A DNA stretch of 64,000 nt from Haplodiscus bocki (lineage: Eukaryota). A program made the position numbers and the translations under genes. Positions 13,320-54,868 of the stretch are shown here, one piece after another. A model generated the notes under the pieces. It was not told the origin of the DNA, searched no databases, and was given only the letters and a program-made list of their open reading frames with translations. Every line of letters begins with the position of its first letter. Within the stretch, counting starts at the first letter, position 1. The DNA is taken from assembly GCA_965655095.1 (NCBI GenBank), contig OZ296648.1, positions 103,168,001-103,232,000 on the forward strand. Direction: 5' to 3'.

Positions 13320-14451
13320 CTTTTTGAAGGGAAAATGCTACCCAGTTATGAAGACTGAATTACTTTGTATTTGTTAATCAACTTGAGATTATAACAAAAA
13401 TGTTATTCTTTAAAATAAACAACTAGTCGCAATCGGTACAGTCAACTATAATCAAAGTGATAATAAAAATCTATTCCTCTAGTACTTTCGTTTCTCCTCT
13501 TTATACCTTTTCCTTGGCGGGAAACATAATTGTTTACACGCCAACTAAAGGTACAAAGTGGGAAAAAGTACTTTAATCATAATAATTACAAAGGAAATAT
13601 GCCGACTCTGGCGGGAAGTAAACAATTTTCCATCCATTTCTTCCTTTACAGACCGCATCTTTTCCATCTTTCGACGGAAAAGTTATGGGTCTCATCAGTC
13701 GGAAATGGATATCAAAGTGATTACTCCCGCGCCGATTAAATAAATAATAGCATAAACAAATGATCAGAAAGATTTTCCAACAGAGGAAAGTAATGAAAAA
13801 TGCACCAAAATTAAGTAGATGACACTAAAATAATCATAGAAAATCATAATTACATGCTTGGTAAAACTATTGAATCGATTTAATTCAGTTTCGGAAGGAA
13901 ACTAGGCTTTTTCCTAGTCCGTTTCTCGTTAATACTAGCTCACGCCTCACTTTGGCCGGAGCGTTCCGTGGCGACTACTTAGCCGCTTGTAGCACTGCCT
14001 TCACCAGTACTACTGAGGAGAATGATTTTGGTGGCTACGTAGACGTCCCGTGTCCGGCCAAAGTGAAACAGCGTAAAAACACAGCGGATTGGTTGAAAGT
14101 TTTGTGACGTCACCAGATCGGTAGCGACGTAACGCGCACGTAACAAAATATTCATTCCTAGCTGCTAGGCAGGTACGTGTTCGTTACCTAAAAGTTGCGT
14201 CCCAATCCGGTTCAGTACACGGGAATGCTATGTATAAAATACGTAGAATTTGTATGAAAATAAACTGCGGAGTGACACGTTTTTGATACGTATCAACTAC
14301 ATGTAAAAGCAAAGATATATTACTGCAATATTAATATAAGAATGGAAATAGAAAAGTCTAAGGTATTGATACAGTTTCTTCTAATTTTCAGGCAATCTGG
14401 GGATGTCCTTTTTTTCTGTATGCTCGTAGGCTTCGCGGATATACTGCGACA
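12917..14451 (-). repeat. 3' LTR (about 1535 bp)
   Basis: On the minus strand it starts TGTCGCAG directly after the PPT and ends GGTCCTTACA. Homology to the other copy stops exactly at that ACA. Confidence 0.85.
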
Positions 14452-17349: not shown

Positions 17350-18945
17350 CTGTTTGTCTCCCGTCTGTGAGTCACTGTTCCGGAGTGAAAATGTGGCATT
17401 TCTAGTTAAAATGTTGGGCTGTAGCCTGGACACAACCAGTTATGCTGTCGTGTGCGTCCTGTTTTTGAGGTTTGTTCTTCCAGGGAAGTGGCCTGTTTGC
17501 TGCATTGGCTCCAACGTAACATCTCTATGGAGTGGTTCGTTTTGCCACATGTCTCCCAGGGAGGGTAGAGAGTTCTAGATTTTCTGTCAGTTTTGTGATT
17601 GTTGGGGCTACAGTCGTTTGTGTCACTGCTGATATTTCCAGCATTATCTGGGTTGCCTGCAATTTGTTGTTTGTGCGTCACAGTGTTCATCTGAGTTTCA
17701 TCCAGATATTCCAAACTGTTAGGCTCTATTTCCCTTTCCAGATGTGTCACAATCTGTTCATACGTGTTGTTCTCCCAATGGGCCTGGTTTATTGATTTCT
17801 TCAGGTGTGGAGGCATCTTGGCATTTATGAATTGCGCAATGATTGCTTGGGCATCAACTCCGAGCGCATTTTTTGCCAATTTCTGGAGTTCGTCCAAAAA
17901 TCAATTAACTTCTGGTTCGCTGGATTGAACACTAGTTGTTGGAATTTGTGTTTTGCCGTAGCCATTGACTGGGGTTTCACGTATTTTCTACGGAACACAG
18001 TCAGGCTTTCTCCCAAATTCTCTCTGTTGGGGCTGGTGATGTTTTTGAACGTCTGCAGCGCATCACCACGCATGAGAGAGTGGAAATAGTATATTTTGTT
18101 TTCTTCTGTTAGCTGATTGTGGATTTTCAAACTCGTTTGGAATAGATCTTCAAACATTTCAATTTTCTCTGATTTCCCATCGAATGTGGGCATTGTTGCC
18201 GTGAGGGACTTAGGCAGTTTCGAGATTTTTGTGATATTGTTGTTGAAATTGGCTGAATTACTGTTCGTCGCCAATTGCTGATTGGTCAACAAAATCTGTT
18301 CTGCTTAAATTGTCGCAAGGGTGTTCTCACTGAGAAATTGTGGCTGACTTGTGGAGCGCGCCTTCTTTTGTTTTCCTGAGGAAACTCCAGAGGAGCAGTA
18401 GGGAATCTCTTCTTGAACTGCTGTCACCATGTCAGGGCCATTGCGAGTTTCTTCTGTAGCTCCTGTCAATATGTCGTGGCGTTCTGTAGCTCCTGTCACC
18501 ATGTAAGGACCGTCGTGAGTCTCTTCTATAACTCCTGTCACCATGTAAGGACCAACTTCTTCGCCAGAGTTATTTGTAGTCTGGCTGCGGAAGATGCCTG
18601 CTTCAGGATGAGGGTCACTCATGGAGTCGTCCTCATTCGTTCCCTGGTTATCCACGTTTGTGTTTCGGAATGTTTCCGGAACGATTCCGGAGTGCATCCG
18701 TATCTGTTGGTTCAGAAGAAACTCGTCTAATTTGGACAGAGTACCCAAAATGCGGCACTCTGTCCTGCTGTACTCCTGGGATAGTATTTAGTGACTCTGC
18801 CTTCTATCTCCTCAGAAAGTTGTGTAATATGTTCCTCGTTAATTCTAGGAACGGACGTGTTTCGTGACTGGCCATTCCTAGGATGTTCCTCTTGTGTTTC
18901 TCTTGTAACGGCTGCCAACTTTCGTTTGTTTCTCAACGTTGCCAT
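17350..18945 (-). pseudogene. Frameshifted gag
   Basis: Overlapping ORF pieces 18727-18945, 18305-18748, 17825-18292 and 17406-17897 join into one gag-like protein. Confidence 0.8.
18418..18543 (-). promoter_or_regulatory. Primer-binding site (18532-18543, TGGTGACAGGAG) plus three downstream tandem copies
   Basis: Abuts the LTR-terminal ACA. One mismatch from the tRNA-Leu-type PBS TGGTGTCAGGAG. Repeated at 18490-18501, 18460-18471 (degenerate) and 18418-18429. Confidence 0.75.
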
Positions 18946-20020
18946 CTTTTTGAAGGGAAAATGCTACGCAGATATGAAGACCGAATTATTTTGTATTTGT
19001 TATTAAACTTGAGATTATAACAAAAATGTTATTCTTTAAAATAAACAACTAGTCGCAATCAGTACAGTCAACTGATAATCAATGTGATATTAAGAATCTC
19101 CCCTCTAGTACTTTCGGTTCTCTTATTTATACCTTTTGCTTGGCGGGAAACATAATTGTTTACACGCCAAGTAAAGGTACAAAGTAGGGAAAAGTACTTT
19201 AATCATAATAATTACAAAGAAAATGTGCCGACTCTGGCGGGAAAAAAACAACTATCCCTCCAATTCTTCTTTTACAGACCGCGTCTTTTCCATATTTCGA
19301 CGGAAAATTTACGGGTCTGATCAGTCGGAAATGGATATCAAAGTGATTATTCCCGCGCCGACACAATAAATAATAACACAAACAAATGATCAAAAAAACT
19401 TCCCATAAGAGAAAGTATTGAAAAATGCACCAAAATTAAATAAAAAACACTAAAATAATCATAGAATATCATAAATACATCCTTGGTAATACTATTGCAT
19501 TGATTATATTCACTTTTGGAACGAAACTAGGCTTTTTTTAGCCCGTTCCACGTTTTTACTAGCTCACGCCTCACTTTGGCCGGAGCGTTCCGTGGCGACC
19601 ACGTAGCCGCTTGTAGCACTGCCTTCTGCAGTACTACTGAGGAGAATGATTCTGGTGGCTATGTAGACGTCCCGTGTCCATCCAAAGTGAAACAGCGTAA
19701 AAGCACAGCCGATTGGTTAAATGTTTTGTGACGTCACCCGATCTGTAGCGACGTAACGCGCACGTAACAAAATGTTCATTCCTAGCTTAGAATAGCTGCT
19801 AGGTAGGTACGTGTTCGCTACGTAAAAGTTGCGTCCCAATCTGGCTCAGTACACGGGAATGCTACGTATAAAATACGTAGAGTTTGTTTGAAAATAAACT
19901 GCGGAGTGATACGTATTTGATACGTATCGACTACATGTGAAAGCAATGATATTTTACAGCAATATTATTATATGAATGGAAATAGAAATGCCTAAAGTAT
20001 TGATAGAGTTTCTTCCAATT
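18544..20020 (-). repeat. 5' LTR (first part hidden in the N gap)
   Basis: Colinear with 12917 to about 14387. Confidence 0.85.
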
Positions 20021-20220
20021 NNNNNNNNNNNNNNNNNNNNNNNNNNNNNNNNNNNNNNNNNNNNNNNNNNNNNNNNNNNNNNNNNNNNNNNNNNNNNNNN
20101 NNNNNNNNNNNNNNNNNNNNNNNNNNNNNNNNNNNNNNNNNNNNNNNNNNNNNNNNNNNNNNNNNNNNNNNNNNNNNNNNNNNNNNNNNNNNNNNNNNNN
20201 NNNNNNNNNNNNNNNNNNNN
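20021..20220. other. Assembly gap (200 N)
   Basis: Run of N; contiguity across it is not guaranteed. Confidence 1.
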
Positions 20221-25973: not shown

Positions 25974-26050
25974 TAGAACTTGATTTTTTTTAGTTTCCAT
26001 TGAGACCTCTTGTGCACCTAGAGACATGATTTCGTGCATGAGGTCTGCAT
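25974..26050 (+). repeat. Left copy of 77-bp target-site duplication
   Basis: Identical to 30399-30475. Confidence 0.95.
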
Positions 26051-26256
26051 CGAATCTGACCTCCGAAAAGTCCATCCAAAAGTTACAACGGAATTGAAGG
26101 TATTGCAAGCCGTTACAGACCATATTAAAGAAGTGCTATCATCCAACATCACAGTTGCCCAACAGGTGAAGAAGAAAAGAACAACCGGCCAAATCAGCGA
26201 CAGCGACAACGCTTCCAGAAAAGAAACGCAGGTAGTCCTCTAATTCGAGCTCTCTG

Positions 26257-26377
26257 ATCTCCTCAGTGCCTCGAGAGAAGGATCTCTGTTGGCGCGAGCT
26301 TGCTCAGTGCCTCGGGTCTGATCTCTGTTGGCGCGAGCTTGCTCATGCCTCGGGTTCCTGATCTCTGTTGGCGCGAG
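26257..26377 (+). repeat. About 39-bp tandem repeat (about 3 units) upstream of ORF1
   Basis: GATCTCTGTTGGCGCGAGCTTGCTCAGTGCCTCGGG repeated. Confidence 0.85.
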
Positions 26378-26412
26378 AAGAATCTCCTAGCAATTCTGAC
26401 CTCCGCCATAAT

Positions 26413-27449
26413 ATGCCGAACATCATGAGTCATAACCACAATACGAGATTGACTTCGACCAAGTACCCTTGTGGTGCATGCGCAGGTGAATGTAAAGACG
26501 GCTCGGTAGCATGTATTCTGTGCAATTCATGGTACCACGCAGGTAACTGCTCAGGATTACAATCAGGCATCTTCATGGTCATGTCAAAAACCTCTGGACT
26601 GGTGTGGCTGTGCAAATCTTGCGAAACGAAGGGTAAGGAACGGTTGTTGAAAGACGAGAAGCAAATTGACGCTAAGGTGCAGGAAACGATTGTTGCAAAG
26701 GTCATGGAAGACAAACTCGATGAGATTAGAGACACCAACATGAAGCTGATTGAAGATAAACTGTCACTTTTCCAACAAAACTTTGAAGCTAAACTTGAAA
26801 ACTTACTTTCAGAAGACCGAAAAAGCGCACAGAGCTGGTCCGAAGTTACCCAACGGAATGCTCCCTTGGTGAAATGTTTGGGAACCATCATGAAAGAGAC
26901 GATTGAGAACGAAAGACTGGAACAAGCAGATCAAGAAAAACGGGAAAAAACGTCATCCTTCATCGAGTACCTGAGAGTGACAAATCGGAGGCCAGTGCGA
27001 GAGCTGGAGATGACATCAAGTTTTTCAAACAGCTCACCGAAGTTGTACTAGGTATTGGTGACCTCAAACCAACAAAAGCAATCAGACTTGGAGCAAAGAA
27101 AACATCAAAGGACAGCGACGGTACTACTGCAGAACGAGTGAGTTCAACACCACTGAAGATTGTATTGCCTTCCAAGGAGGATCGGGACTTACTTTTCAGA
27201 AATTTGAGAAAGTTGAGAGCAGCAGACAAATCATTCGCTTCAATCAGCGTTTCATACGACCTCTCGCAAGATCTGAGGAAGCAAATCAAGTTGAAAATTG
27301 AAGAGGCCAAAAACAAAGATGGAGAGAATGCAAAAAACTACATGTACAGAATGAGAGGACCTCCGAACAGACTAGAGGTACAGAAACTGAAGCGGAAAGT
27401 GAAACTGTCAGCGGAGAGCCTAGACGATGCCTTCGTCGTCAATCCCTGA
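26413..27449 (+). pseudogene. LINE ORF1 (PHD finger + coiled coil + RRM-like region), with a 1-bp deletion in the A-run at about 26945-26950
   Basis: CGAC..C....C..C..WYHAGNC...WLCKSC. Adding one A restores REKNVILHRVPES...IRLG...PLKIVL...SISVSYDLS...RMRGPP. Confidence 0.88.
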
Positions 27450-30307
27450 CGTTTCTTTTTTCCAATACTGATGCGATGACAAACAAAAAGGAGGAAATCA
27501 GTGCAAGGCTAGTAAGTGAGAAGCCGGATGTTTTCGGCCTGATGGAAATAAAACCAAAAAAGCATGGCTTTGTGTTGGAGGAAGCAGATATCGCTTTTGA
27601 AGGATATGACGCATTCTACAGCAAACAAATTAGCAACAAGGAACATCGAGGTACAATAGTATACGTTAGGCAGGATATTGGGCTTCAGTCTAGTCGAGTT
27701 GAGATCAACGGATGCCCAGAAGACACTATTCTTGTTCAACTTTGTAACGGAAAAAAAGAAAAAATCTTGTTCGGGTGCGTCTATCGTCACTGGAATTCAG
27801 ATACCCAAGAGCAACAGGCCTTAATGAACACTCTTAGAGCTGTATCACACATGAATTTCACGCACGAAGTTATCGTAGGAGATTTCAACTTCCCGAAAAT
27901 TGATTGGTCCTTGAACTGGACACCGCTTAGTGAGAACAGTAACGAGCACTCATTCACTGAATTGGTAAGGGACTGCTTCTGGCACCAACACGTCCAATTT
28001 GCAACAAGAGGCAGAGGATCTGATGACCCTAGCATTCTTGATCTTGTCTTCACGGATGCAGATACAGAGATCGACGACATGCAGTGCCAAGTTCCTTTTG
28101 GAAAGAGTGACCATTCGGTGATTTCTTTCGAACTCTCCCAGGTGGAAAGAACACGCTGCAAAAAAGGAACAAGATGGAAGTATGCTAAGGGAGACTACGA
28201 AAGCATGCGCGAGGTACTGTCAAACAACCACTGGGTTGATGTACTCTCTACTGCCCCAAGTGTCAACGAAGCATGGAATCTTGTAAAAGAAAGAATCAGC
28301 GCAGCAGTAGAAAAGTTTGTGCCAAAAGCCATTTCCGGATCCACAGAACAGTTTTCGGTTCCCTTGGATAAAGACCTCTTACAACAAATCCGAAAGAAGA
28401 ACAGCCTCTGGAGAAAATACCTCAGAGTGAAAACAAAAACAGCTTACAACGAGTTCTGCAGAGCGAGAAATTTTATGCGGAGTCGAACAAGGTCCAAAGC
28501 TAGAGAAATTGAAGATGAAATTGCCCGGGAAGCAAAACGAAACCCGAAGAGATTTTGGACCTTTGTGAACTCAAAAGTTAAAGCCAGAACTGGCATAAGT
28601 GACCTCGTCTTGGAAGACGGAGAGGTAGTATCCTCAGACACCAGAAAGGCTGAAGTCTTGAATACCTACTTCAGCAGTGTTTTTGTAGAAGAGAAAACCC
28701 CTCCCCCGGAAATTGACGAATTTGTTGTCGACTCATACATTGAGGAGCCCCTCATAACTGAATCAGCCATCAGAAAGAAGTTGGCAGAATTAAACAGGAC
28801 AAAGTCACCGGGCTTTGACGAAATCCATCCTCATGTGCTTGCCGAACTGTCAGAAGTTTTGACTGAAACACTGCAGATCATTTTTTCAAGCACCATTGCT
28901 GAAAGCGAGCTACCCGAGGACTGGAAGGAGGCGAGGGTGACAGCACTCTTCAAGAAAGGTGACAAAAAGAAAGTGGAGAACTATCGACCGGTCAGCCTAA
29001 CATGCATCGCATGTAAAGTACTAGAAAGCATTATCAGAGATGATATCATTTCCCACATGACGTCGAACAACTTGATTTCAGATAGACAATATGGCTTCGT
29101 GAAAGGAAGATCGACGAGTCTACAATTGCTGAAAGTCTTAGAAGAGTGGACACAGATTCTTGATAGAGGAGGAGGCATTGACTGCGTTTATTGTGACTTC
29201 CAAAAAGCCTTTGATAAGGTTCCATATAGGAGACTGATGGCAACGATCTGGTCATACGGAATTCGAGGAAAGTTATACCGATGGATAGAAACTTTCCTAA
29301 CAAACAGGAAGCAACATGTGGCTGTCAACGGTCAAAAATCGTCCAAAAATCTAGTCTTGAGTGGAGTCCCGCAAGGAAGCGTTCTAGGGCCACTTCTTTT
29401 TGTGATCTTCATAAACGACCTACCTGCAGCTGTTGAGAATGAAGTATGGATGTTCGCAGATGATACAAAGATCTACCAAGAGGTGAATTGTAAGGAAGAT
29501 GGTGAATCGCTTCAAAATGACCTCTACAGGCTTGAAGATTGGAGCAAAAAATGGCTACTGCCGTTTCATCCAAAAAAGGCAAAGCTCCTAAAGTTTGGAA
29601 GAGCCAAGAAGCTTGAACGAGAGTACTACGCCGAGCGAGGGAAACTACTACCGATCTCAAGCGATAATACTGAGACGGACTTATGAGTGACATTTGACTC
29701 AGACCTGAAATTCGAAAAACACATTGTGAATAAAGTCAATAAAGCCAATCGATTGGTTGGCCTCATCAAACGGACCTTTCAATTGGATATTTTGAAGTTC
29801 AGGTTCCTCTTCCGAGGCATTGTTAGACCGCACCTAGAGTACGCCACTTCTGTATGGAACCCCACATCAGTCAAACTCCAAAACCTCATCGAGAATGTGC
29901 AAAGAAGGGCTTCAAAACGTGTACATGAGTTAAAAGACCTATCTTACGAAGAGAGACTGAAAAAACTTGACATGCCAACCTTAGCATATAGACGCTTGAG
30001 AGGAGATATGATTGAAGTCTTCAAAATGCTTACCAACAACTCTGGGTACGATCAATCTGTGACGACAAATCTGCTGACCCGTGAGGGGCACAATAGGACC
30101 AGAGGCCACGCATTGAAGCTGAAAATGAATAAAAGTCGATCTAGCCTTAGGAAGCATTTCTTCACACAGAGGGTGGTGAAAGAGTGGAACAACCTCCCTA
30201 GAGAGGTTATCGAATCCGTTAACACCACTACATTCAAATCAAGGCTGGACAAATGCTGGGAGAAAAGAAAATTCATGTTGAGACCAACTCAGATGACGTT
30301 GCAGTGA
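27446..30307 (+). pseudogene. LINE ORF2 (APE endonuclease + RT) with a single nonsense codon at 29684-29686
   Basis: Motifs GDFNFP, LDLVFT, SDH, NYRPVSLT, QYGF, DFQKAFD, GVPQGSVLGPLLF, FADDTK and RPHLEYA. DL*VTFD corresponds to the conserved DLGV (GGA>TGA), and both ORF pieces are in the same frame. Confidence 0.95.
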
Positions 30308-30398
30308 GGGCCAGTAACACTTGCAGTGAAAGAAGTCACTAGCATTGGGAGCTGTGAATAGAGGACTACCTGCTCACAGTACTGAACAGATGAACAGA

Positions 30399-30475
30399 TA
30401 GAACTTGATTTTTTTTAGTTTCCATTGAGACCTCTTGTGCACCTAGAGACATGATTTCGTGCATGAGGTCTGCAT
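30399..30475 (+). repeat. Right copy of 77-bp target-site duplication
   Basis: Identical to 25974-26050. Confidence 0.95.
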
Positions 30476-35859: not shown

Positions 35860-38560
35860 AAATGCAATCGCTTGTTTTCATCGTAGGAGATATGAATATT
35901 GACTTGCTTAAAGAAAACTCTTTAACTAGCATTTGTTATTGTGCGTGATTTTCTTAAGAATATGAAAGCAAAATCTTCCTCTCACATAGGTCCATTTTTT
36001 ACCCGATGTTTGCCAATTGAGCTCGCGTGAACGAGCCAACATATATTGTTCACGTGTCTGAAATTTTTTTCATCAAATTGTAGCAAATTTGCCGTAGAAC
36101 GCGACTGATAGTAAGATTTCTCAAAACGTTCAAAATTTGGGTTTTTTAAAAAAAAATAGATGGGTTTTTCGAAAGAAAATTTTGAATTTTTCAAAAATCG
36201 CTAAAGGTAGCAAATTTGCTGCAGAATGCGACGTAAATAGTAAGATTTCTCAAAACATTCAAAATTTTGGGTTTTTTGTTCAATCGCTAAAGGCAGCAAA
36301 TTTGCTTTGGAATGCGTATCGAATGTCCTTATTTAAAAATTTCTTTTCCGCCCTAATTATGAGGTTTTTCGACAAAAAAAATCAGGACATTTGAACGTTG
36401 GAAAAAACGTTCGAGGAAAAAACGTTCTTATCTTTTAAAATTGCATCTTCACCAAATTGGGAAGGCACAAAACTGAACCGACTGGAGCAACCAAAGATAG
36501 TGAAACCCTCCTGGACCATGTACTTCACAACAATGTCTATGCTAATCTGCAAGTTAATGTGAACGAAACTGATTTGACGGACCATTTTGCGACTGAAATA
36601 ATATTACCATTTAAAACACTTCGTACCGTTCGTGCAACGTTGATTGCAAAAAATATACATTTTCAAAAGACCAAATGGTTAACCAGTTTCGAAAACTCTT
36701 TCAACTAGTTGGAATGATCTTGATTTCTCGCAGGACTTGAATAGAATATTTTGCACCCTCATGGAAACTTTTCCTAACACAGTCGAGTTCTTTTCAGCAA
36801 CCAAAGAAGTTAAAAAACGTACTGGGGCAAATTCTTGGATAAACAATAGTATGACAATGCTGTTGTGAAGAAATTCAAAAAATACAATGCGTATCCAAAA
36901 GTTCCAACATTAAAAAATGAAGAATTTCATGAAAAATCAAGGAGGGAAGTGGAAAAGCTGATTCGAAACAGTAAAAAACAGCATTACAGTCAAAAATTGG
37001 GAAAGGTTGTGAAAAATCCGCGTCCATGTTATAGAGAATTGCATAAATTAACGGGAAGGGCGAAAAAATAAACAACGACCTTTTGAAAATTGGAGGTAAA
37101 GATGTGACAGAACCCACAGATGTTGCAAATTTATTCAACCATGCTTTTGTATCGATAGGTAAAAATATTGTGGAAAAAATCCCTTCTTCGATGAGAGATT
37201 TTTCTTAAAGTTGAATGGAATGATATGTTTATCCCCCCCCCCAATTACACGGGAGTTTTGAAAGCTTTGTTTAATCTGAAGTTGGGAAAGTCGGATGGGT
37301 ATGATGGAAATTCAACGGCAATTTTACGCTGTTGTTACGATGTTGTATATCGCTGAGTTGATAGAAGATATTCGCTTCGATAATAACTCAATGTGTACAT
37401 CTATCTTATTTGACCTGAGGAAAGCATTTGATACAATTGATCATTCAATTTCACATGGAAAGGTAGAAATGTATTGTGTGCGGGGAGTTGGTCTGGACTG
37501 GTTCATCTCGTATTTGAATAACAGAAAGCAGTTCGTAAAGGTACAAGGTGCTGAAAGTAATTCGTTAACAATATTTTGTGGCGTTCTTCAGGGTTCTATA
37601 ATTGGGCCGCTTCTCTTTATTATACACATTAACGATATACCAAGCTCTTGTGAAGGCAATATACCCGAATTGTTCGCAGATGCTACAAACGCCTTATATA
37701 GATTACCAAGAAAGCAAAACAAGAGCAATCTAGACTCGCTTTTCTTCGAGCTCGTTGAGCGGATGTCGCAAGGCAAACTTTTCTTGAATATGATGAAAAC
37801 ACATTTGCTGCATTTCTCTGGATGCACCGCTAGCGATTTATTAATATGCAACCAAACTATTAAAAGTTGACATCATGTCAGTTGTTTAGGTATCATCGTT
37901 GATAAGCGACTCAATTTTCAGGACCATGTGAGTTTATAATAAAGGAAAACTGTGCAAACATATTTTTGTTTTGAAGAGGCTAAAACCAATTGTTTGAAAA
38001 AACGTTCTCATATTAATACACTTATGTTATTCCATCTTTTTCTTACGGGTTTAATGGATGTACGTCAAAAGGAAAGCTTGAACTAAGTTTTAAAATGCAG
38101 GAAATTCTGCAAATTAACTATGGCAAAAAGCCTGATTATCCTTCGCATGAACTTTTCGAGGAAATTCAATTTATGAACTCTATTGTTTTGATCTGATCAA
38201 ATTCAAATTGGAAGCAATGAGGCAAGAAACTCCTTCTTCCTACTTAAACAAGTTGTATCGTACGATGGAAGCAGCTCTCCACTCTAGGAGCTCACAAAGG
38301 GGCCTTCAAGTTACGCTAAACTGTGAAAAAAAATACCAGAAGACGTCTCTTAGGCTAAAAGGCACCAAGCTAAGGAATGTCTCACTGAAACGGGATTTGA
38401 TCACTCCAAATGTTCCTCAGCTCGATCAGAGTTGCTTCACCACAAAACTTATTGGGAAACTTAAGTTCGTTGTTTTAAATAAAGGGTTATGAGGTCTGAT
38501 TTTTCAAAGCTACAGGGCTTTTGCCTATAGGAGCATCCCTCTGATGCTGTATTTCTTATT
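35860..38560 (+). mobile_element. Decayed CR1/L2-group LINE ORF2, interrupted by an insertion
   Basis: Motifs IVGDMNIDLL, TLLDHV, LTDHFA, DLRKAFDTIDH, GVLQGSIIGPLLFIIHINDI and LFADAT, with many stops and frameshifts. Confidence 0.85.
35981..36465 (+). repeat. Non-coding interspersed repeat with internal tandem units, inserted in the LINE endonuclease
   Basis: Three units starting GTAGCAAATTTGC.GTAGAATGCG, located between the EN motifs GDMN and PT..T..LLD. Confidence 0.7.
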
Positions 38561-39617
38561 TGTTACAACTGTAACTGTTTATTTGTACGCGTCAGAAAAC
38601 ACTTTCTTTCTTTTTAGTGGTTTTCATTTCGTCCTACCTGCAGTTTCATCAAGTAGTTCTTCAATTTTGAGATAAATGTCTTACTGCTCATGCTGTGACG
38701 AGACCGCTCTTGCAATTGTGAATTAGAAGAAAAACTGGAACTTCATACTAGCAAACGAAATTTCTTTAAATGCGAGCACAAAAAAAGTATGAATTTCAGA
38801 GCAATCATATACGCTGCAGTCCGTTCAAAACGGTCAACAAGGGACCTCTAGAAGCTATCCTTATAAACAAGTATTTTATAGATGTTTCCTGTCACCACAA
38901 ATGAGAACTTGAAAAAACTCATTTTTATTTTGGACAATCTTCAGCATTTACTACACCGTTTTCGCGGAATTATTGTCTTCTCTCTAAGGAAAATAGATGC
39001 CTCCGTATGTGTCTCCGCCGGCATTGTTTTCACCTCATCATCGATTTCACTAGCTTTCACTCTTCTGTTGAGTGATAGAAACCTACCACGAGCTCCGCTA
39101 ATATAACATTGGACAACAGGTGATCCGATCCCGGACCACGGAAAACCCTCACCTTCCCGGACCGTCTGCATTTTTGGTGTCGAACATTCTGCGTTAGGCT
39201 CCAGAAAGGAGTGGGAATTGACCTCATGGATTATTGACATATAACTCTTCGGCGTAGTGTAATACTCTTGAATATTATTATAGATTCAATTAATTGGTGC
39301 TAATTATGAGATAAAACTAATTAATCGAAAACTCGACACCCTAAGTTGGAGCTACTAATATTATTTGATTTACAAAAGAGACCCAACCCTGCACGTGAAT
39401 TGTACTATACAGAACGAAAAAAAACCATATAAATTGGAAGCAACACCCAAAAATATCCACAGGAGCTGTTTTTTGATCTGAAAAGTATAGTGGATTTGTA
39501 TAATTTATTGAGACAATACTGACCGCATGACAAAAAAATTTCGACATAATGGATTGAAGATGAGATGGATTGAAACACAGAACATTTTCGACTAATAAAA
39601 TTGACTCTACAATTCAA

Positions 39618-42600
39618 TGTAACATGGAAAATTCTCCTCCTCCGGCCCCGATCTAAAACAAGTGGTATCTCACATTAATAAGCAAGACGGAAACCCTAAG
39701 ATTTTACATGATGACAGGAAGGAAGTGAGGACAACCATCAAACCAGTGGCAGCTCTAAACCCTCAAACATCCGTTACTATCAACCCGTTCAGCGGAAAAT
39801 CTGATAAAAACTGGCCAGATTTTTAAAGCCTACTAGAAGTCTCATCAATGTTGGAAATATTGCAGCACCAGACCAACCAAAATTCCTACAACTGGGTTTA
39901 CTTGATCAAGTACTGCAATATTTCAGAACTTTACCACAAGTAACTAGATATAACTTCCAATTATCCTTTACAGCTCTCAGAAACCATTACTCTAACCCAA
40001 ATCTAAGAAAAATTGCACAAACTACAACTTGAAAACCTGAAATCAGATCTTAAAACTGGTAATCCGGAAGTGTTTTTGGTACAAGTGCCGATGAAGGCAA
40101 CACAAGCTTACCCTGGCGCAGTGTTTGCTCCAATTCCACAAGTGAATCCACCAAACGATCTCGCTGAAAAAGATAGAGTTGCAGCAGGTCAGGCAGCTAA
40201 CCAAGTGATTCTTGATGTTGCTGACAATCAAAAACAGGAGGGTCAAAATTTTCACAAACGCAATGCCAAACTTTATCAAAAGCAAACTAGGAGACCAAAA
40301 TGAAGCAGCCACAGCACAAGACCTATGTACATTGGCTAGACGATGAATGACCTTCTTCGAACTGTTTAGTGACGACTGGTCGAGAGACGCATTGAATGAG
40401 GTAAGTTCGTCCTTATCAGAAAATTTGATCCGAGCACTTACGAATTTTACACAACAGCAAGACGAATCGAAAGAACAACAGACGAACCGTTCGGACAGAT
40501 TCAACACACTGATCGTCAATCAGCCATCCCACCAGATTTATGAGACAAATTACCAACCACAGTATTTTGGAGGATGTAATAGATTAAACAACCCACGAGG
40601 ATTTTGAGGACGCGGAAACTTGAACTATAGAGGACGAGGTAGATTCAACAATCACAGAGGCTTTTATGGCAAACTTCTACAAATTTAACTACCCACAAAA
40701 GCATTCTTCGAATGAGCTATTTATTGCACCAAACGATAACTCCAAACAGATTTTTACATCTTTGTATACGCAAATCACTACGCCAGAGACTTCAACCAGA
40801 GAAAAGCAGCTAACAGAAATCAACAAATCCTTAGCGAACAGCATCGTTTAGCGACTGGAGCCACGCCAGTATAAAGGTATGAAGACGCAAGACAAAGCAG
40901 CGAAGCCTCATCAAATCGCCATGACTGCATGTATTTCACTTGAAGGAGATCTACGTCCAGTTAAATTTTTTCCCCTGCTGAACAGAGAGAAGCGCTAATA
41001 GACAGTGATCCTTCTGCAAAAATAGTTAGTGACAAGGAGTACCGAAAATTTCAATTATTTAGAACTCAAATTCGTCTATCATCAGTAAAGTGGAACTAGC
41101 TTCAAGGAAACTTGTAATCTATGCGTCGTCAAAACGATTTATCTCTTTCGATAGCAAAACAATTCTTCAAAAAAACTTTGTTGCTCTAGCAAGCACAAAC
41201 AGCATTTTACTTCAAATACCTTTTTCAAAAATAATTTTTTTGAATAGTACTCGAAGAAAACCTCATGAAACTACCTGATTTAACACTCCGGCTCAATGGA
41301 GTACAACCGAACCCGACAGAAATACAGGCGAATTCGCAGTATGCTGTTGGAACAATGGAAAAATTGACCATCGCACCAAATCAACAATTAACTCTAAATT
41401 GTATTTTACTCTCAAAAAGTACTAAAGTATTTACTGATGTGTGTGGAATAGTAAAGAGTGGGTTCTGAAGGCAAAATAGGTTTGTTTATGGCATCGTCTT
41501 TATGAAGAAGAGACTCCAATAAAAAATTGCTCCTTTCTGCATTGAACTAAGTTACATCAGGTATCTCACGTAGTGCACGTTTCAAATTCCTGTCTCGACA
41601 ACAAGCTGAAACTTTAACTGCGATAGACGCACACTTACTATTTTTGGCGAAAATCAGACACCCAGATGACTTCGTCCAAGTAATAATCCAACTTATGGTA
41701 GATGACGATTTCGATTCATATTCGCAACCTGGACTTAAACCAGACTTCAAAAACTTTTGGATTCATACAGATTTGTCCAAACTCCTTGACCTGGACTAGA
41801 TAGACCCACAAACTGACGAAACCTATCCTGATAATTCCTGAAAACATTGAAATGGAAAGATTCAGATTTTGAAAAAGGTGAAAAAAAGGTCTAACTATTC
41901 GTTGAATTTTCTGACATCTTTGCGAAACAAGATTGGATGTTGGTTAAAATTCTGATATTACAGCGAAACTGACACCAGACCATGACCAACCGGTCTATAA
42001 GCAAAGCCCTCCAACAATACTTCACCTACGCGAGGAATTACCAGTTGAACATGCTCTGTTGCAGTACTTCGGTATAATTACAATCCCTAACCATTCAAAA
42101 TATAGTAGTCCAAGTTTTGCCCACCGGATTGGAACCAACTGAGAACTTCGAATTTCAATTGACTTGAGAAGAATAAACCATCTACTTCTACACGACTATC
42201 ATTATAACAACTTCCCAATTTCAATGATGACAGATACAGAATCTCATTTTGCTGGGAAATCACTTTTCCCTAAACTTAATCGTTATCAAGCATATCATTT
42301 TGTTCGAATGGCAGATCCACTTTCAGTCGGGTTTCTTTCGTTCAGTTTTGCTTCCAGAACGACGGCCTATCAAAGACTTGCTGGAGGAGTAAACAGAGCG
42401 GTAACAGGATCCAGTGCATTTGTATGGATCTTGTCTCTATTCCGAATGAAACACTTGAACTCAAACTTAAAGACCGCATCCCTTTTCGACAGATCGGAAT
42501 AGATTTAGTGCAAACTTATCTGACAAGACAATGACTGAACTCTTTGCAGATGACTCACCAGATGAACTACTACAAGTAGTGGTTGCCATCAACACTCTAA

Positions 42601-44928
42601 TCATACTGAAACAAGCTGTAAGCTTCGAACAAACTTCGCAGAGATTGAAAACAAATACCCGAAACTGCACCGGCATGCAACTTCTCAAATACACCACTCA
42701 GAAAGATGCAACTACCAAACCCAACGGGTGCTCACCCAAAACTTGACACAAAAATCACGAAATTGCGGGTTGAACTGCCAAATATTACTACAGTAAGAAA
42801 GGTAGAAAAGTGGATGGCTGATGGCAACGAGCAAAACAACATTATATTTTCCCCAGAAGATGAACAGGAGTACTTCAAACAAATACCACGATTGCTACTC
42901 CACAATGGGATAGCGAAACGAAAATAGTACAACCTTGACGTTACCATTCTTCACCAACTCTGTGTTCCTAGGCACATGCTGAAAGAAGTTTTGTATCAAA
43001 TTAAAACTCACCAACAGGTGGACACTTGGGAATAACCCGAACATTTCCGGATTACGCTTCTACTGCCCTAACTAAATGGAACAGATTGCAGACTATCAGC
43101 AACTTCTATCCATGTCTTCAATTGAAACAACTAAAACCATGACTGAAATCGTCACTACAGAAGTTCTCAACAACTGCTTCTGAGGAGATTCTGTACAACT
43201 TGATAATATGGAACCATACCCTACAACACCCCACAAATCAGTCTTGACAGCGATGGATGCTTCTCTGGAACACCCAGAAAGAATAGTAGTTAAAAGCTCG
43301 CCTACAGTCTTAGCTGGTTCCCGAAATTAAACAGCAACCAACCATTCACAACTTGGCATTAACATGTACCCCTGGCTACCTTTTCACAACAAGTATCGTA
43401 CATCCATTAAATGCTCACAAGGAGTCCTATGTCTTGGCAGGGAACTGACGAAAACCCTCGACTTGGGATTTTATAGTACTTGCACGCAAAAAGCGGAATT
43501 CAATTGTTTTTTTTCGGATTACTTAGAAGTGAAACGTTAAAAAGTTTTCAAATCCAGAAGAGTCTTGAAGAATCATTCCCCAGATACCGGAGATAATATG
43601 ACCAAAGAGCAAGGGAAAACCCGTTCAAAGCACATCATACTGCGTACCATTGATTCCAAAACTCACCTAACAATCTGCGTTCAGTCCAAAGCTGATCCAG
43701 AAATGGTTACACTGTGTCGAATTTAGACAGGAGTTACCCACTCGAACTGCTCGGTTCACAAAGTGGGTACAAACTTACCCAAATAGCTCATTGAAATGGA
43801 ATCAGAATGCGACCGATAGTTCCACAATACACAGTCCAGGCATTCTGACAATAACCATGAGAATTTCCAGACGGATCCACTGTTAGGAGTAACAGAGGAG
43901 AACATAACAGCTTTGAAGGTCTCGCTGCATTACTCGAAAATGAAAGACTAGTATCAACAACTCCCACTACAAACATCGACAGCCCAGATAGAGTTTCCAT
44001 CTGCTTTGAACAACCGTTCAAGGAACAGCCGCCCCTGTGGTAGCATCGCCACCACTTCCAACTCCAGCAGTGGTAGTACCACGCAGTGCACCAGACGCAG
44101 GACCAACAGCAACTCACAGGCGACAAATAACTCCCCCAGAACAAATAACAGCACCGATCCCAGAATTTTCTGAAGAATCGGACGAGTGTGTAGGACCAAT
44201 TCAACCCTGAGGCGCTCCGATGGAGTGAAGGAACCAAACCGAAAAAGAGCCCAAGAGTGCAGACTGTTAGAAGTAACAGCAAGACATTTTCGGAAAATAC
44301 AACACCCCCCCCCCCCAGGTGCACACCTCACGGAAAAACGAAAGATGCACGCCACTTTGTTGACCTCAAAAACTAATCGCAGAGAACGCCAACAGCTGCA
44401 TTATTTATAATGAGCAGGAGCAAAAAGTGGCTTGGCCACGAGGAAACCTACGTCGCCCTCTGATATCAAAGATCCAATTAGATACCACAAACGTCACAAT
44501 CGTCAAACAAAACGTCTTGTGCAAATCCTCCTGTATGGGACACTGCGTTTCATCAGACTTCCATATGAGAGCAGGAATAGCAGCGAAATCTGACCTGCTT
44601 TACCCACAAAAAAGCAGCAAAGAAGCTCATTCTCTGATCTGTTTTTGTACAGACAAGTTTTCAAGAGGTTGGATCTACAATATAGTGACGAAATATGTAT
44701 TTTTCGACAAACAAACGACGAAATTTACATTCTTCCACAAACCGTTCTACGCATAAGTAAGAAATAGCCTGAAATTTGCGCGAAACAATGCAAAAAAGAA
44801 TGGTGTCAAACGTTTTCATCTCCCAAATTTTAGATGTGTACAATCTCAAATGGCAGTCAGTACATCATCTTTTATCCGAAGTTTTCCACAAATCGACAGT
44901 CGCCGTGAATGTGTGCTTGCGATCCTGA
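39618..44928 (+). mobile_element. Decayed Gypsy (Metaviridae) LTR retrotransposon: gag, RT, integrase relics and extra 3' ORF
   Basis: PBS-like TGGTATC at 39663. Gag PFSGK..NWPDF and LRNHYSNP. RT FSDIFAK, KYSSP, IDLRRINHLL and QAYH. Integrase zinc-binding SPTGGHLGITRT (about 43007-43045). No 3' LTR identified. Confidence 0.85.
44475..44928 (+). pseudogene. TARG1/OARD1 (Poa1p-like) macrodomain, decayed
   Basis: GHCVSSDFHMRAGIAAK, WIYNIVTK, HKPFY, SLKFARNNAKKNGVKRFHLP and LKWQSVHHLLSEVFHKSTVAVNV. These follow the order of OARD1 AHCISEDCRMGAGIA, YIYYLITK, HKPTY, SL..M..H..KNGV..LSMP and LQW..V...IEEVF....I.ITVY. One stop and one frameshift. Confidence 0.85.
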
Positions 44929-45602
44929 AATTTCGTCTACAACCAGGAAAAGGAACAATTTAAAAAACCCCGAACAGCTGAATAATTTAAATTCAGGTCA
45001 CTTACTGGCCTCACAGTACGCTCATTGTTGTCAAATTTTCAAGTAAAATTTGGCTCCCCTGGACAAAGAGAAACCCCGGAAAACACATCGAATAAAAAAA
45101 CTGCCTAGAATCTTGAAAGGCAGGTTTTTAGTTGAGTACCTTATTAGAGCGAAGACAATTGAGAGCCTAAGGCAAAAAAATGACCCCTCTTGACATCCGG
45201 TTGGCCTCAATTGCAGACTTCGGCCAGCATTTTACAAGACATACGAGGGGCTTTTTGTACCTTTCCGGATACGACACTCGATGCCTTTTACAATAGGGTC
45301 CATGATTTGATCGATGAATTGTAAAAATGCGTTAATTGGACATGATATCTTCGGTATGATTTTTTTTAGTGCTGACTGAAAGTGGAATTGCGGACTTAGG
45401 CTGTCAGAATTCAAATATAACTCGACATTGTACCTCCTCAGACACTATACAAACCACCCAGTCCAATAGGATATATGCCTACACCAATTGTCGACCAATA
45501 TTTCCCTCCATTCCGAAAAAAAATTTCAACAGAAAGGAAGAAACTTACCTATTTTGTAGATGAGCTTTGTTTTCGGGCAGCGAATCATTTTTCTTTGGTG
45601 AC

Positions 45603-46363
45603 TCATCCTCTCTCCTCTCTATGGCCTTCGCTCACACAGTCCTTCCGAGTTGTCGTCACATTCCATAATCTTATTTCTGAGAAAACTGCCGCTGGTGAAT
45701 TCCGAATATTATGATGCATCAATGCATTCCAGCCATCATGACCATCAACAGATATTACCATTAGAGCATTACGAGCAGGGAACGAAACAGAATCACCCCG
45801 ATTTTGGATGAAATGAAGTGAATCCGTGGAGCTTTTGTTGATAAGACCTTCAACAAATTGGCAGCATCCTTCACACCAACTAAGTAAGGAGCCACTTGTG
45901 ATCCCTTTCATGCTAACACCCTTAACTTGCCGCCATGGAGTAGGGATGTACATTGTAGGGGGTGGTGGAGTAGGGACTGGTGGATCATCATCCTTGTGCC
46001 TCCCAGTTAAACAGTTTCCAGTAGCCACCAGATGAACAGGTTCATGTGCCTGATTGGCAGGTACTGAAGCGCTGTTAAACCAAGAAACATAGTCGACGTT
46101 GGGAATATCGGGCATAAGAGCAGTCAGCACAGTTGTATGAGAAAAGAAGGTACTTTGTTTCTCTCCGCCCCAGTTTTTGAATGTTTGCTAAGTCACATTT
46201 TCATCAGTAAAATTTTCAGCAATTTCTTGCTACTGTATTCATTTGAAGGAACACCTAACTCAGCATAGGGTGTGAGGAACTGTCTAGCTTCAGTGACAGA
46301 TATTTGTTTTAAGAATTTACCAGTCTTTCGGCAAAGTCCCAGAAGCAACTCAGATTTTTCCAT
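45603..46363 (-). pseudogene. Decayed JmjC/cupin-like 2OG-Fe(II) oxygenase ORF
   Basis: LTGRHKD (T..HxD), then SLLHGGKLRVL (G.K.W strand, in a shifted frame), then FIQNRGDSVSFP...MVISV (Q.PGD.V..P...H.V). The distal His is not retained. Confidence 0.6.
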
Positions 46364-49300
46364 AGCAATTTCTGAAAATTAAACAATTTCTACAGTTAGG
46401 CGCTAGAGTTATATGCCACTGAGTACATGAAAGTCCAGAAAGATGAGACTTTTCAAACTAACTTCTAATATCCTGTTCAACAGTAGACCCAACTACTTCA
46501 GTAAACAACGCATTTAGACTAATAACTACACGCCGAAGTTTGCGACATCACTCTGCGTTAATTCGGCACTTTCTCCGCACAATTGGGATGGCTGCGGCAA
46601 TACTTGACAAAACTATGGGAAAAACCTTAATGTCGAAGTTCTCGTCTGGCAATTCGGGAGAAGCCGGAACAGTCTGGCACTGATCAGCGCGACCTGGCAA
46701 AGAAACTGATTGCATTTGATCTTTCGTATACCGTTGTACCAGCAGGGCAACATTCTATCTGGAAGTCATTGTTCATGAGGACAGGACTACAAGTCATGAT
46801 CTAAAAACCGCGTGACAACCTTGAACTATGCTCCTTAGTAACATTTTCGGTACTATCAATAATGAATTACTTTTTAGGAGACGGAAACGTAACCGGTAAA
46901 TGGAAATAAAAGGACATCATTATTAGTTCCGGTAATAAACTGTTATTTTAAAAAGGATATTGAAAAGTTCCGCTCAATTAAGATCCCACGACGCTAGATT
47001 ATTATTTTCCGCCCTATTTATGAAGTTCCAATGGAAAGTCTTCCTCTGAAATGGAACCTTTTGCGTTTCGACTTGCAAGTAGTGCCATCAATCTTCAGGG
47101 TAAAACATCCAAAATAGTCCGGTCTCGGCGTTAAAATCAAATTATCCGTCTGGTGATAGGTTTCACGAAATTGCTTAATTTCAGTGTTTATCCAATCTCC
47201 GACAACTGCCATAGCAACCGTATTAGGTTCTCCAGAAAGCACTGCTGGTAAGCCCGGGTCTTGTTTTCCATCGCATGAACCATCCGCGAGTACCGATTCA
47301 ATATTCGTGTACAAAGTCAGTCGCAAATGCCTCGGCTATTTCGGAAAAGTCCGCTGATAGGAACATCGTTAGCACGTTTTTCTTGAAATCATATTATGTA
47401 CAGTGCTTAATCGACGTCCTCAAAACTCGATTTTGTTTGCTTTTTGAAGTTGGATTGAATAGCCAATCAATCAGCGGGATCTTTCCTCAGGAATTGGTGT
47501 CAGTTATGTCTCTTTGTTGCTGGAAGGTAAGGTTTTCATAGGTAAATAAGCCTTGTCTGGTTCTTTTGTCCAAAGCGTTTAGTATTCCTCATCGCTAGTG
47601 TCTGGGTTGAGCGCTGTCTTTGTTATTTTGGCTGAGTTCTGGATTGAAACAATTGTTCGAATCCTTGTTATGGTTTTTTGCCTCCGGGGCGTTTCTGTTG
47701 CATTCGACTTCACTTTGAGGCTGTTGGGTATTCGCTTCATTTCCTCGACAATCGCCGATGCTGGGGTCGGACCAGTCAACGACACTGTGATGCTGTTGCA
47801 GATCGATATTTCAATTAGATGCAGCAGAATCTTCGAGGGTTTGACGTCGAAGTGCCAACACTCGAATCAGCTCAGTTCTTCTTCGGTTTCCTATGCGAGT
47901 GCATTTCCCTTCCTCACGACCCCTGTTACAAATATCAACGGTGTGAACTTCGACCGGCATCATTTGGGATTTTTCAACTATAGTGTCCCAAGTTTTTCTC
48001 ACAGCTTTCGGGCCCAAGTCAAGCGTCTTTCCGGAGATGTGTTTCTACTTTTTTCATGGCACTTATTTCTTGCCCTCTACATTCGGAAAGAGAATATCTG
48101 GTTTAAAATTTTGCTTCTTTTTCAAATCGGTTTTTTGATTGGCCAATTTGATTTTTCATTTTTTTGGAAGTATACAAAGTTGATGAATTGGTAACCAGTT
48201 TGTGTTCCGGCAGTATGCTCATTCTGACCTTTCCGGAAAAATTCAAAATTGCGCGAGAATAATTGAGAAAATAGCTAACGGCGAACTTTTTGACGACAGT
48301 TGATCAAAGAATGATGTGCGAAATGTAATTCCATTGGGTCACCCCGTTAAAAATACAACTGTTCGGGGTGAGGCTGGAGCTGAGGTACGATTTGTAGAAT
48401 CAGTACCAAAAGCCTCAAAATTTTATACGTCTGACACTTAAATTAGGTTTTTGTTTCAGACGGGCTATTATTAAATGGCGGAATGAATTCCTAGAAACAA
48501 GCATCGTAGTGTTTTGGTTTTAGAGAAAGAATGTTTGTTTAGTTTGTTCTTGGGTTTTTACACATGTTGAAATGAAGTTTCGGTTTGTGTATACAGATTG
48601 GTTCCGAAAAATTTTATCGTTCAAAAATTGCTGTTTTGTGTCGTTATCAGATAGATCATAGTCGAAACGTAAGCGGTCGAAAAGGACCATTGTTGGGCAC
48701 TTGACAGGTACTTATCTACGAGTTTTATTTTGAAATTCGTGTACATTAGGCTGTAAAAATGCCTGACCTTAAAAGCATAATTGACATATCAGATTTTTCA
48801 GTATGAGTTCGTGTGGCATGTACTTGTATAACTTTTGAATATGAAGGAAACTTTTTCTTGAATTTGTTGAGCATATTTCACTTTTTTATCGTGTGTAGAG
48901 CATATTTTTTGAGTCAAATAAGGCAATATGAGTCAAATAAGTTGGGGGTGGATACTTAAGTTGGTCAAAATTGGGTGGTGTTAACTTTAGTTGGTCAAAA
49001 CTGGGGGGTTTAAAGTTAACAAGGCCTATGTGGGGGGTTTAATCTTAACAAGATCCTTGTCTTGTAATTCTATCGATAGCGTCTCCGATTGTTGTGGTAT
49101 CAAATGACTTTCTGGTTTTTTCCCGATTTTTCCTTCTTTGAAATATCCGCTTACAAGACCTCATCCAGAACTTTGTGTGGATTTTTTAGGAATTAGTGAA
49201 TGTACTCCAATCGCTACCTGTACTTTTTCTTTCAAACTTCGTTGCTTTTGTTAATGGTGAAAATTGACTTTATAAACTAAACAATGTTCAGTGTTTTGAG

Positions 49301-54232: not shown

Positions 54233-54868
54233 TTCTGAACGATATAAAAAATATTTTGCTTTTGTTGTATAAACCAAGTAAAGTAGTAGGCAGAATATGG
54301 TTTCATAATAATAATAATCATACTTTCGGTGGAATTACTTCCGACGTTTTTGTGGTTTCGATTTCACTGCAATGAAATATTTGTACCGCATTTTTTTTAG
54401 TTGAATCGAATATGTAGAATTTTAATTGAAAGTGAATCCGGGAGACGAAAGGTGCGCTATATTTCAATGTGCACACCTAAATAACCAAGTTTTTCTCATG
54501 TACAGTTGTTTTTGTACGGCACCGTTTTCGTTACAAGATACCGGGTAATTAAAATTGATCGACTAAATTTATCTTGTAACGAAAAGGGTGCCATACAAAG
54601 AACAATTGTACATGAAAAAGAAACTTAAAAGAGTTATGTTGGTGTGTCCATCAAAAAATATCGCACCTTTCGTCTCCTGGGTTCAATGTTAATCAACATT
54701 CTACATATTCGATTCAACTAAAAAAATGCGATATGAATATATCATTGCCGTGAAATCGAAACCACAAAAGCGTAAAGGTAATTCTACTAGAAATATGACC
54801 ATTATTAAATGTTCTGCCTATTACTTAGCTTAAACAGGAAAAGCAAAATATTTTTTCATCGTTCAGAA
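54233..54868. repeat. Foldback element: about 300-bp inverted arms with a 29-bp loop (intronic)
   Basis: TTCTGAACGAT...TTCGTTACAAGATA (54233-54540) pairs with TATCTTGTAACGAA...ATCGTTCAGAA (54570-54868). Confidence 0.9.

Follow-up and report, generated by a model that had tools for sequence, protein, structure and literature searches.

TARG1 (OARD1, C6orf130) strips ADP-ribose from acidic residues and from nucleic-acid end phosphates (PMC7050489), and it also reverses thymidine-linked ADP-ribose in DNA in a Lys84-dependent reaction, the natural writer opposed there being described as unknown (PMC8501950). Open reading frames (ORFs) with a macro domain are reported from fish epsilon-like endogenous retroviruses (ERVs; Basta et al. 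2009, cited in PMC4977317). Captured accessory domains in long terminal repeat (LTR) elements, including these fish macro domains and the chromodomains of Gypsy integrases, are already known, and the fusion of a TARG1-type domain to Pol is not rare in databases. Retroviral and LTR-element dUTPase is an accessory nucleic-acid cleaning enzyme in Pol that varies in position and is dispensable in some lineages. Here we describe a Ty3/Gypsy copy in a 64,000-nucleotide stretch of Haplodiscus bocki DNA (GenBank assembly GCA_965655095.1, contig OZ296648.1, forward-strand positions 103,168,001 to 103,232,000; hereafter the window, with position 1 its first letter), whose relatives end Pol in a TARG1-type macrodomain. 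No description of such a domain in a Gypsy Pol was listed by searches of the open-access and bioRxiv literature, subscription papers and Repbase or GyDB entries being outside this scope. The text on TARG1 distribution in PMC4245714 mentions viruses and not transposons, and macro domains go unmentioned in the text searched of PMC13524379 and PMC12440569.

A TARG1-type macrodomain in a Gypsy polyprotein

Translation of 43500-45400 reveals a colinear TARG1/OARD1-type macrodomain at 44487-44928 on the plus strand, its strands and helices in order, which is a decayed homologue in the TARG1/OARD1 (ALC1-like) class and not a working member. An earlier note, made from the sequence alone, had placed the domain at 44400..44928; the domain itself stands, and its start lies about 90 nt later, at 44487. 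Direct library matches are weak because this copy is too decayed: alone it falls below threshold in Pfam and NCBIfam, and its matches to TARG1 chains in the PDB (E 0.55-0.71) are likewise below threshold. Two database proteins bridge it to known domains, the closest being P0001 (50% identical, E 1.7e-17), which matches Pfam Macro at 7.7e-6 and human TARG1 at E 3e-25 with about 37-38% identity, so that the Macro profile check advised in the earlier note is positive through the relative and sub-threshold for the window copy itself. The AlphaFold model of P0001 (predicted local distance difference test, pLDDT, 93), which represents the nearest intact relative rather than the window copy, has TARG1 4j5q as its best PDB match (E 4.6e-14, TM 0.83, rmsd 1.5); the top 8 Foldseek matches are all TARG1/C6orf130, followed by DarG (E 1.7e-9). 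A macro profile built from 146 natural hit segments and run on the six-frame window recovered one locus (iE 8.7e-23, 69.3 bits) with a second-frame piece at iE 1.2e-5, and the best domain in a reversed control scored -3.4 bits. A Pfam scan of the six frames of 36001-48502 recovered only the reverse transcriptase (RT) of an upstream long interspersed nuclear element (LINE). Pertus-S4-tox, a candidate for the macrodomain ORF, was rejected as spurious and sub-threshold (E 0.11-0.16; 13 bits vs 25).

In the relatives P0004 and P0007, integrase (IN) tail, linker and macrodomain lie in a single ORF, an order that the window follows colinearly. Searching for longer proteins related to P0007 yielded 31 long Pols, among which the share of macro carriers is inflated, as the query itself held the macrodomain. 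In 14 of these 31, Pol ends in frame with the domain, preceded by integrase and a Pro-rich linker, which answers the earlier question of a separate ORF or a fusion in favour of fusion to Pol; nine of the 14 have RT, RNase H (RH), integrase and macrodomain within one ORF. The clade profile found a macrodomain in 0 of the 17 remaining proteins. The clusters of P0163 (121 members), P0159 (61) and P0160 (60) show these to be successful multi-copy families.

Both trees were made by quick search without bootstrap. In the RT tree (22 rows; SH-aLRT support), P0158 is the partner of the window (support 98), and both fall within a clade of 11 rows (SH-aLRT 100), of whose 10 proteins eight carry the macrodomain and two are cut-short near-copies of the macro-bearing P0159. 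A terminal macrodomain is absent from the nine related rows outside this clade, two of which are short and one of which, P0180, may hold a remote one. That stretch in the tail of P0180 (about aa 1525-1650) scores 0.6 bits with the clade profile (shuffles reach up to 4.0), with the nearest Atlas clusters being Macro at 0.91; if real, the domain would have been acquired before the 11-row clade arose, and we treat it as a lead only. Built from 161 rows and 145 columns, with 10 short segments and one possibly mammalian match set aside, the macro tree leaves many forks open. In it, the window falls into a family clade of 17 rows (97), itself part of a 36-row clade (99) that holds all 10 Pol-terminal macrodomains included, with host-like OARD1, ligase-fused and other rows apart; the host-like OARD1 rows were judged by sequence only, and the host's own OARD1 was not identified among them. 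For seven clade macrodomains (P0040, P0044, P0143, P0024, P0025, P0027 and P0106), the flanks map to no Pol by blastp.

These predicted proteins show that the TARG1-type macrodomain belongs to the Gypsy element as an in-frame C-terminal domain of Pol. At the protein level, the Pol order shown by the relatives is protease (PR), a spacer domain, RT, RH, IN, linker and TARG1-type macrodomain, and trees and alignments of these translations show the macrodomain present at the base of this Gypsy clade. The earlier proposal of a Gypsy element with a TARG1/OARD1-type macrodomain downstream of integrase is borne out by the same fusion in relatives, and its worry that other copies might lack the domain is removed, since those relatives carry it. 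The env-like position proposed with it does not hold: the macrodomain is the in-frame Pol C-terminus, and the next 1.2 kb of the window has no plus-strand ORF of more than 97 codons. An errantivirus-like, env-bearing element was rejected on these grounds, the longest plus-strand open stretch there being 97 codons, as was a chromovirus, there being no Chromo match in 30 Pols at E<=0.001 and the terminal domain being the macrodomain.

Catalytic residues and constraint

The positions of Lys84 and Asp125 were placed by alignment to the human TARG1 chain, which has Asp at residue 125, written 'Glu125' in the review PMC7050489. The lysine is kept in 31 of the 37 clade macrodomains, the aspartate in 30 and both in 28. 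Identity among four Pols of catalytic type is 42% for the macrodomain, 26% for the adjoining linker, 70% for integrase and 81% for RT. Because it is more conserved than the linker and less so than RT and integrase, the macrodomain appears constrained but fast-evolving. In pairs with a diverged family, its identity falls to 19%, similar to the linker. Trees and alignments show the macrodomain and its Lys/Asp pair to be kept, as judged from predicted proteins, under amino-acid constraint in most lineages.

Decay of the copy in the window

The macrodomain of the window copy has the following features.

44487..44928, plus strand: decayed macrodomain of TARG1/OARD1 type, which runs to a stop codon at 44926-44928 (homology, profile, alignment, tree)
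44673..44693, plus strand: strand with the (I/V)TK motif at its end, in which the equivalent of Lys84 is retained (TARG1 match, alignment)
44684..44743, plus strand: 30-bp tandem duplication, giving a 10-residue insertion private to the window copy (22/30 identity, alignment)
44754..44756, plus strand: in-frame stop inside the macrodomain (translation)
44820..44853, plus strand: broken GCGLD loop, Asp125 equivalent lost (frame change near 44838)

The earlier note held that all colinear OARD1 motifs are present. This is right for the (I/V)TK lysine, the Lys84 equivalent at 44673-44693, and wrong for the GCGLD loop, which is readable in no frame, the position of the catalytic aspartate being lost at the break. 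The frameshift described there was correctly seen, with the frame changing at ~44838, and so was the duplication of the VTK..FFDK segment (44684-44713/44714-44743). Its 22/30 identity is by itself not rare, being met at 222 of 63,941 window positions, and the duplication coincides with a 10-residue insertion missing in all 38 other alignment rows. The in-frame stop at 44754-44756 was absent from that account. The window copy cannot act itself and is a pseudogene.

Structure of the Gypsy copy

The element in the window is a dead, internally deleted Ty3/Gypsy copy. Its sequences may be similar to Gypsy elements known from acoel worms. Searches by tblastn with intact relatives recovered protease, spacer, RT, integrase pieces, linker and macrodomain in order on the plus strand; the Ty3/Gypsy Pol order PR-RT-RH-IN is assigned in relatives by Pfam, and the window is colinear with it, minus RH and parts of RT and IN. 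Its remaining features are these.

39175..39184, plus strand: candidate primer-binding site (weak), no tRNA match made; 38901-39620 has two starts of the form TGG[T/C]G, this being one
39624..40900 (approximate), plus strand: probable gag remnant with many stops, RG-rich at 40629-40646, so labelled from its position upstream of the protease and its sequence
40968..41453, plus strand: aspartic protease remnant with a degenerate catalytic motif at 40992-41009 (tblastn P0163 aa 8-176, P0173 aa 42-197, P0166 aa 58-220)
41467..41769, plus strand: domain between protease and RT, possibly dUTPase-like (49.5% to P0158 aa 4-108)
41835..42424, plus strand: N-terminal part of RT (73% identical to P0158 over 164 aa)
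42424..42442, plus strand: internal deletion junction (the match to P0163 breaks off at aa 528 and resumes 18 nt on at aa 825)
42442..43258, plus strand: spacer between RH and IN, followed by the zinc-binding region of integrase and the first part of its core, the reading frame changing along the way (tblastn P0163 aa 825-1108, P0159 aa 858-1140)
43258..43324, plus strand: second deletion junction, ~65 integrase core codons gone (the match to P0163 breaks off at aa 1108 and resumes 66 nt on at aa 1195)
43306..44007, plus strand: integrase C-terminal region (tblastn P0007 aa 7-249, P0004 aa 7-161)
44031..44486, plus strand: Pro-rich linker, within the Pol ORF of intact relatives (colinear with P0004 aa 173-320 and P0003)
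44463..44474, plus strand: degenerate counterpart of the putative cleavage motif (see below), at the same upstream distance as in 23/28 relatives, with its Asn lost in the window copy
44945..44955, plus strand: candidate polypurine tract (weak), 17 nt past the macrodomain stop, no LTR confirmed behind it

Pfam gag-asp_proteas covers in P0166 and P0173 the segments that match the protease remnant. The dUTPase label for 41467-41769 is a possible one, taken from a Pfam match (E 3e-4) between PR and RT in P0180, a Pol outside the clade. The RT of the window is 49-65% identical to those of the other 18 related Pols. The first deletion removed ~296 codons, comprising the C-terminal part of RT, with its YxDD-type motif, and RNase H. 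The assignment of 42442..43258 also draws on the Pfam H2C2 and rve positions in P0163 and P0159, and P0004 and P0007 have weak Pfam Integrase_p58_C matches. The linker, which the earlier note called Ser/Thr/Pro-rich and placed after the end of pol, is Pro-rich (23 P, 9 T and 8 S in 150 codons) and lies inside the Pol ORF of intact relatives.

No LTR pair was found: the best flank match by blastn was 26 bp and out of place, and local alignment scored 33 (shuffled mean 31.8, maximum 38.5). The LTRs of the window copy may be lost, truncated or too old. The candidate polypurine tract is one of two purine runs of at least 10 nt in the 770 nt downstream.

A putative cleavage motif before the macrodomain

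A hydrophobic-Asn-x-hydrophobic motif lies 24-33 aa before the HC-x-S-x-D strand, the first conserved macrodomain strand, in 23 of 28 relatives, as against 2 of 163 upstream linker windows; P0173 is not covered by this count. In an alignment of eight Pols, the motif occurs in at least four rows at seven columns. Five of the columns coincide with or adjoin domain boundaries: the end of the protease, the start of RT, the end of RNase H, and the starts of integrase and of the macrodomain. It also precedes the macrodomain in non-catalytic families. Because the motif recurs at other Pol boundaries, it suggests a protease site that would release the macrodomain as a particle protein of its own.

TARG1-type macrodomains in other proteins

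A wider domain survey, in which 58 long matches were scanned, placed TARG1-type macrodomains at varied positions in other LTR Pols: after IN (P0036, P0088), after RH (P0051), after PR (P0056, P0136), before PR (P0048) and after an integrase zinc-finger piece (P0116). Trees scatter the Pol-linked macrodomains, with four label changes suggested. The macrodomain is fused to DNA ligase, a LIG3-type BRCT or PNKP in P0029, P0111, P0038, P0050, P0053, P0078, P0082, P0100 and P0091. P0064 (1015 aa) and P0105 combine it with a NADAR domain, and P0064 also has a superfamily-1 helicase-like region; these are possibly mobile proteins with two kinds of ADP-ribose eraser in one chain. P0188 (2530 aa) is a Gypsy-type Pol whose precomputed Pfam list has several helicase/AAA accessions. 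In insect errantiviruses, a 'pseudo RNase H' with altered strand order follows RNase H (PMC13524379), and the TARG1-type macrodomain of P0051 sits at this position; that some 'pseudo RNase H' domains might be decayed macrodomains is offered as an idea only. Beyond eukaryotic elements, P0001 has matches in 444 phage records (E<=1e-3), all at less than 60% identity, and a prokaryotic genome scan with P0001, by a method that finds close relatives only, gave 53 pattern matches, none confirmed.

Possible roles of the macrodomain

The reading that we favour, with about even confidence, is that the macrodomain serves as an accessory de-ADP-ribosylase, a packaged and protease-released eraser that would clear host ADP-ribose from the RNA, cDNA or proteins of the element. 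As a part of Pol, it would be packaged into the virus-like particle, as Pol proteins are, and the element protease probably cuts it free at the motif that is common to other Pol boundaries. The free domain may then remove host-added ADP-ribose from RNA, from cDNA (at thymidine or end phosphates) and from acidic protein residues, as the biochemistry of TARG1 and DarG suggests, which would leave reverse transcription and integration unblocked. It would thus be a cleaning or counter-defence enzyme, like retroviral dUTPase, useful and not essential; a counter-defence role is plausible. The same macro type at varied Pol positions in other LTR lineages favours this reading, as do the in-frame Pol fusions, the placement of the window in both trees, the retained catalytic pair, the recurring motif and the phage matches to P0001, and because of those other positions, use of the macrodomain does not appear tied to integrase.

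Several points weigh against an accessory eraser. The catalytic pair is lost, with the frame open, in P0166 (41 members), P0167 (20), P0168 (25) and P0169 (9), and P0173 likewise lacks it; because multi-copy families lost the pair yet keep an open frame, hydrolysis appears dispensable in successful lineages. Two of the seven motif columns lie inside RT and RH, the motif was defined after the sequences had been viewed, and the rows are related, so that the Fisher p (1e-22) overstates their independence. No host transferase is known to mark retrotransposon DNA. DarT-like activity in human cells is described as remaining to be found (PMC8501950). Finally, repeated independent capture is not claimed, as a single origin of the 17 element-associated macrodomains tested is not rejected by an approximately unbiased (AU) test (p 0.178).

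An unlikely alternative is an integration-repair helper, an active hydrolase that would clear the routine ADP-ribose of PARP1/2 from integration gaps and nicks with no dedicated host defence involved. The fusion of TARG1-type macrodomains to DNA ligase, LIG3-BRCT (P0029, P0111 and others) and PNKP (P0091), all DNA-end repair enzymes, points this way, as do the action of TARG1 on end phosphates (PMC7050489) and the macrodomain adjoining integrase. However, host cells usually possess erasers of their own, the macrodomain is found at other Pol positions elsewhere, and its fast divergence (42% vs 70-81% for core enzymes) fits conflict or relaxed constraint better.

Rather improbable is a chromodomain-like reader, in which the macrodomain would stay on integrase, bind ADP-ribosylated chromatin and steer insertion. 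A cleavage-like motif directly before the domain, in non-catalytic families too, the retention of the catalytic pair in 28/37 and macrodomains away from integrase in other lineages argue against tethering and pure binding, and the identity between diverged macrodomains (19%) is about that seen between linkers. In its favour, the domain stands where Gypsy integrases have their C-terminal chromodomain (10.1101/2021.11.30.470311), non-catalytic macrodomains persist in multi-copy families, and the ALC1-like class includes readers (PMC7050489).

We give still less weight to a neutral passenger, a piece of host OARD1 captured once and carried without use: catalytic residues are lost in several lineages and most out-of-clade Pols have no macrodomain (0/17 by profile), but the domain is more conserved than the adjoining linker (42% vs 26%), and lineages with RTs up to 25% different retain its catalytic pair and open frame. 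An independent OARD1 retrocopy or a chance neighbour inserted behind the element, to which the macrodomain's place near the end of the recognisable element and the missing enclosing LTR pair might point, is refuted by the colinearity of integrase tail, linker and macrodomain with single-ORF relatives, by the 14/31 Pol fusions and by the macro tree, where the domain is nested among element macrodomains and is not host-like; the clustering with host OARD1 envisaged in the earlier note was not found, and a processed OARD1 pseudogene was rejected on this placement and on the absence of any poly(A) of at least 10 within 1 kb downstream.

Extending the accessory-eraser reading, a bolder proposal, doubtful in our estimation, is that an unidentified DarT-like or PARP-type transferase of animal hosts ADP-ribosylates retrotransposon cDNA or RNA, and that Gypsy lineages answer with a protease-released TARG1-type eraser. 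They would have gained it at more than one place in Pol, and it would have been lost or inactivated once the pressure ceased. If true, the elements would indicate what TARG1-class enzymes naturally act on, a substrate long sought, and would reveal a further, new layer in the defence against transposons that parallels in eukaryotes the DarT/DarG conflict of phage infection.

Other elements in the window

The window around the Gypsy copy otherwise holds LINE and BEL/Pao-like remnants. A ~1.47-kb direct repeat (12917-14386 and 18544-20020, 83-98% identical in pieces, spaced 5.63 kb) flanks a match to DUF1759, of BEL/Pao gag type, at 17828-18304 on the minus strand, and a 200-N assembly gap (20021-20220) follows right after the second copy; the repeats are either BEL/Pao LTRs or a local duplication. 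A LINE-type element at 25974-30475 has a 794-codon endonuclease-RT stretch (27302-29683, plus strand) and a 39-bp tandem at 26281-26377, and a perfect direct repeat of 77 bp (25974-26050, 30399-30475) bounds it on both sides; target-site duplications are rarely of such length. Further LINE remnants on the plus strand encode endonuclease and RT (6340-8943) or RT only (37280-37867, ~1.7 kb upstream of the Gypsy gag-like region). Nested inverted repeats at 54246-54856 and 1382-1982, with arms 82-93% complementary, resemble miniature inverted-repeat transposable elements (MITEs), and two arrays of a 29-bp unit lie at 10217-10951. Directly downstream of the Gypsy copy, a 194-codon open stretch (45606-46187, minus strand) has no Pfam or Atlas match; the region to about 47000 on this strand looks like a broken Cys/His-rich coding remnant and is possibly another mobile element.

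Comparison with known systems

The P0001 model shares its fold with human TARG1/OARD1/C6orf130 (PDB 4j5q, 4j5r, 4j5s; TM 0.83, rmsd 1.3-1.5), and equivalents of Lys84 and Asp125 are present in most relatives. Human TARG1 is a stand-alone cellular enzyme, whereas the Gypsy macrodomain is the end of Pol behind a long linker and has decayed catalytically in some lineages. The bacterial DarG macrodomain (PDB 5m3e, 5m31, 5m3i) is the next-best fold match, with the catalytic lysine and an NCBIfam DarG profile match of E 3e-16 for P0001. However, this match covers only profile positions 26-149 of 338, and its 59.5 bits against a curated cut-off of 250 led us to reject identity as a DarG antitoxin; the Gypsy macrodomain also has no DarT partner and no toxin-antitoxin operon.

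Fish ERVs, as described in the cited source, are likewise LTR retroelements with a captured macro domain, but they belong to the Retroviridae and carry it in additional ORFs, its class unstated there, whereas here a Ty3/Gypsy element carries a domain of TARG1 class in frame with Pol. Gypsy elements that have captured chromatin domains, chromoviruses among them, resemble this clade in having an extra domain at the integrase C-terminus; chromodomains are non-catalytic readers, whereas the Gypsy macrodomain keeps its catalytic pair and has a cleavage-like motif before it. Retroviral and LTR dUTPase acts on uracil nucleotides, whereas the substrate of the macrodomain would be ADP-ribose adducts.

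The interest lies in the family, the locus itself being dead and the domain class familiar. The Gypsy clade bears on whether nucleic-acid ADP-ribosylation restricts animal transposons, and its catalytic and disabled sister families would supply natural active and inactive enzymes for assay and allow insertion pattern and copy number to be compared between them. Viral and phage macrodomains, TARG1-like ones included, also exemplify ADP-ribose erasers encoded by mobile genomes (PMC4245714). Those of RNA viruses are mostly of MacroD type. Few viral TARG1-like homologues are reported to keep all essential residues (PMC4245714), whereas most of the Gypsy clade do.

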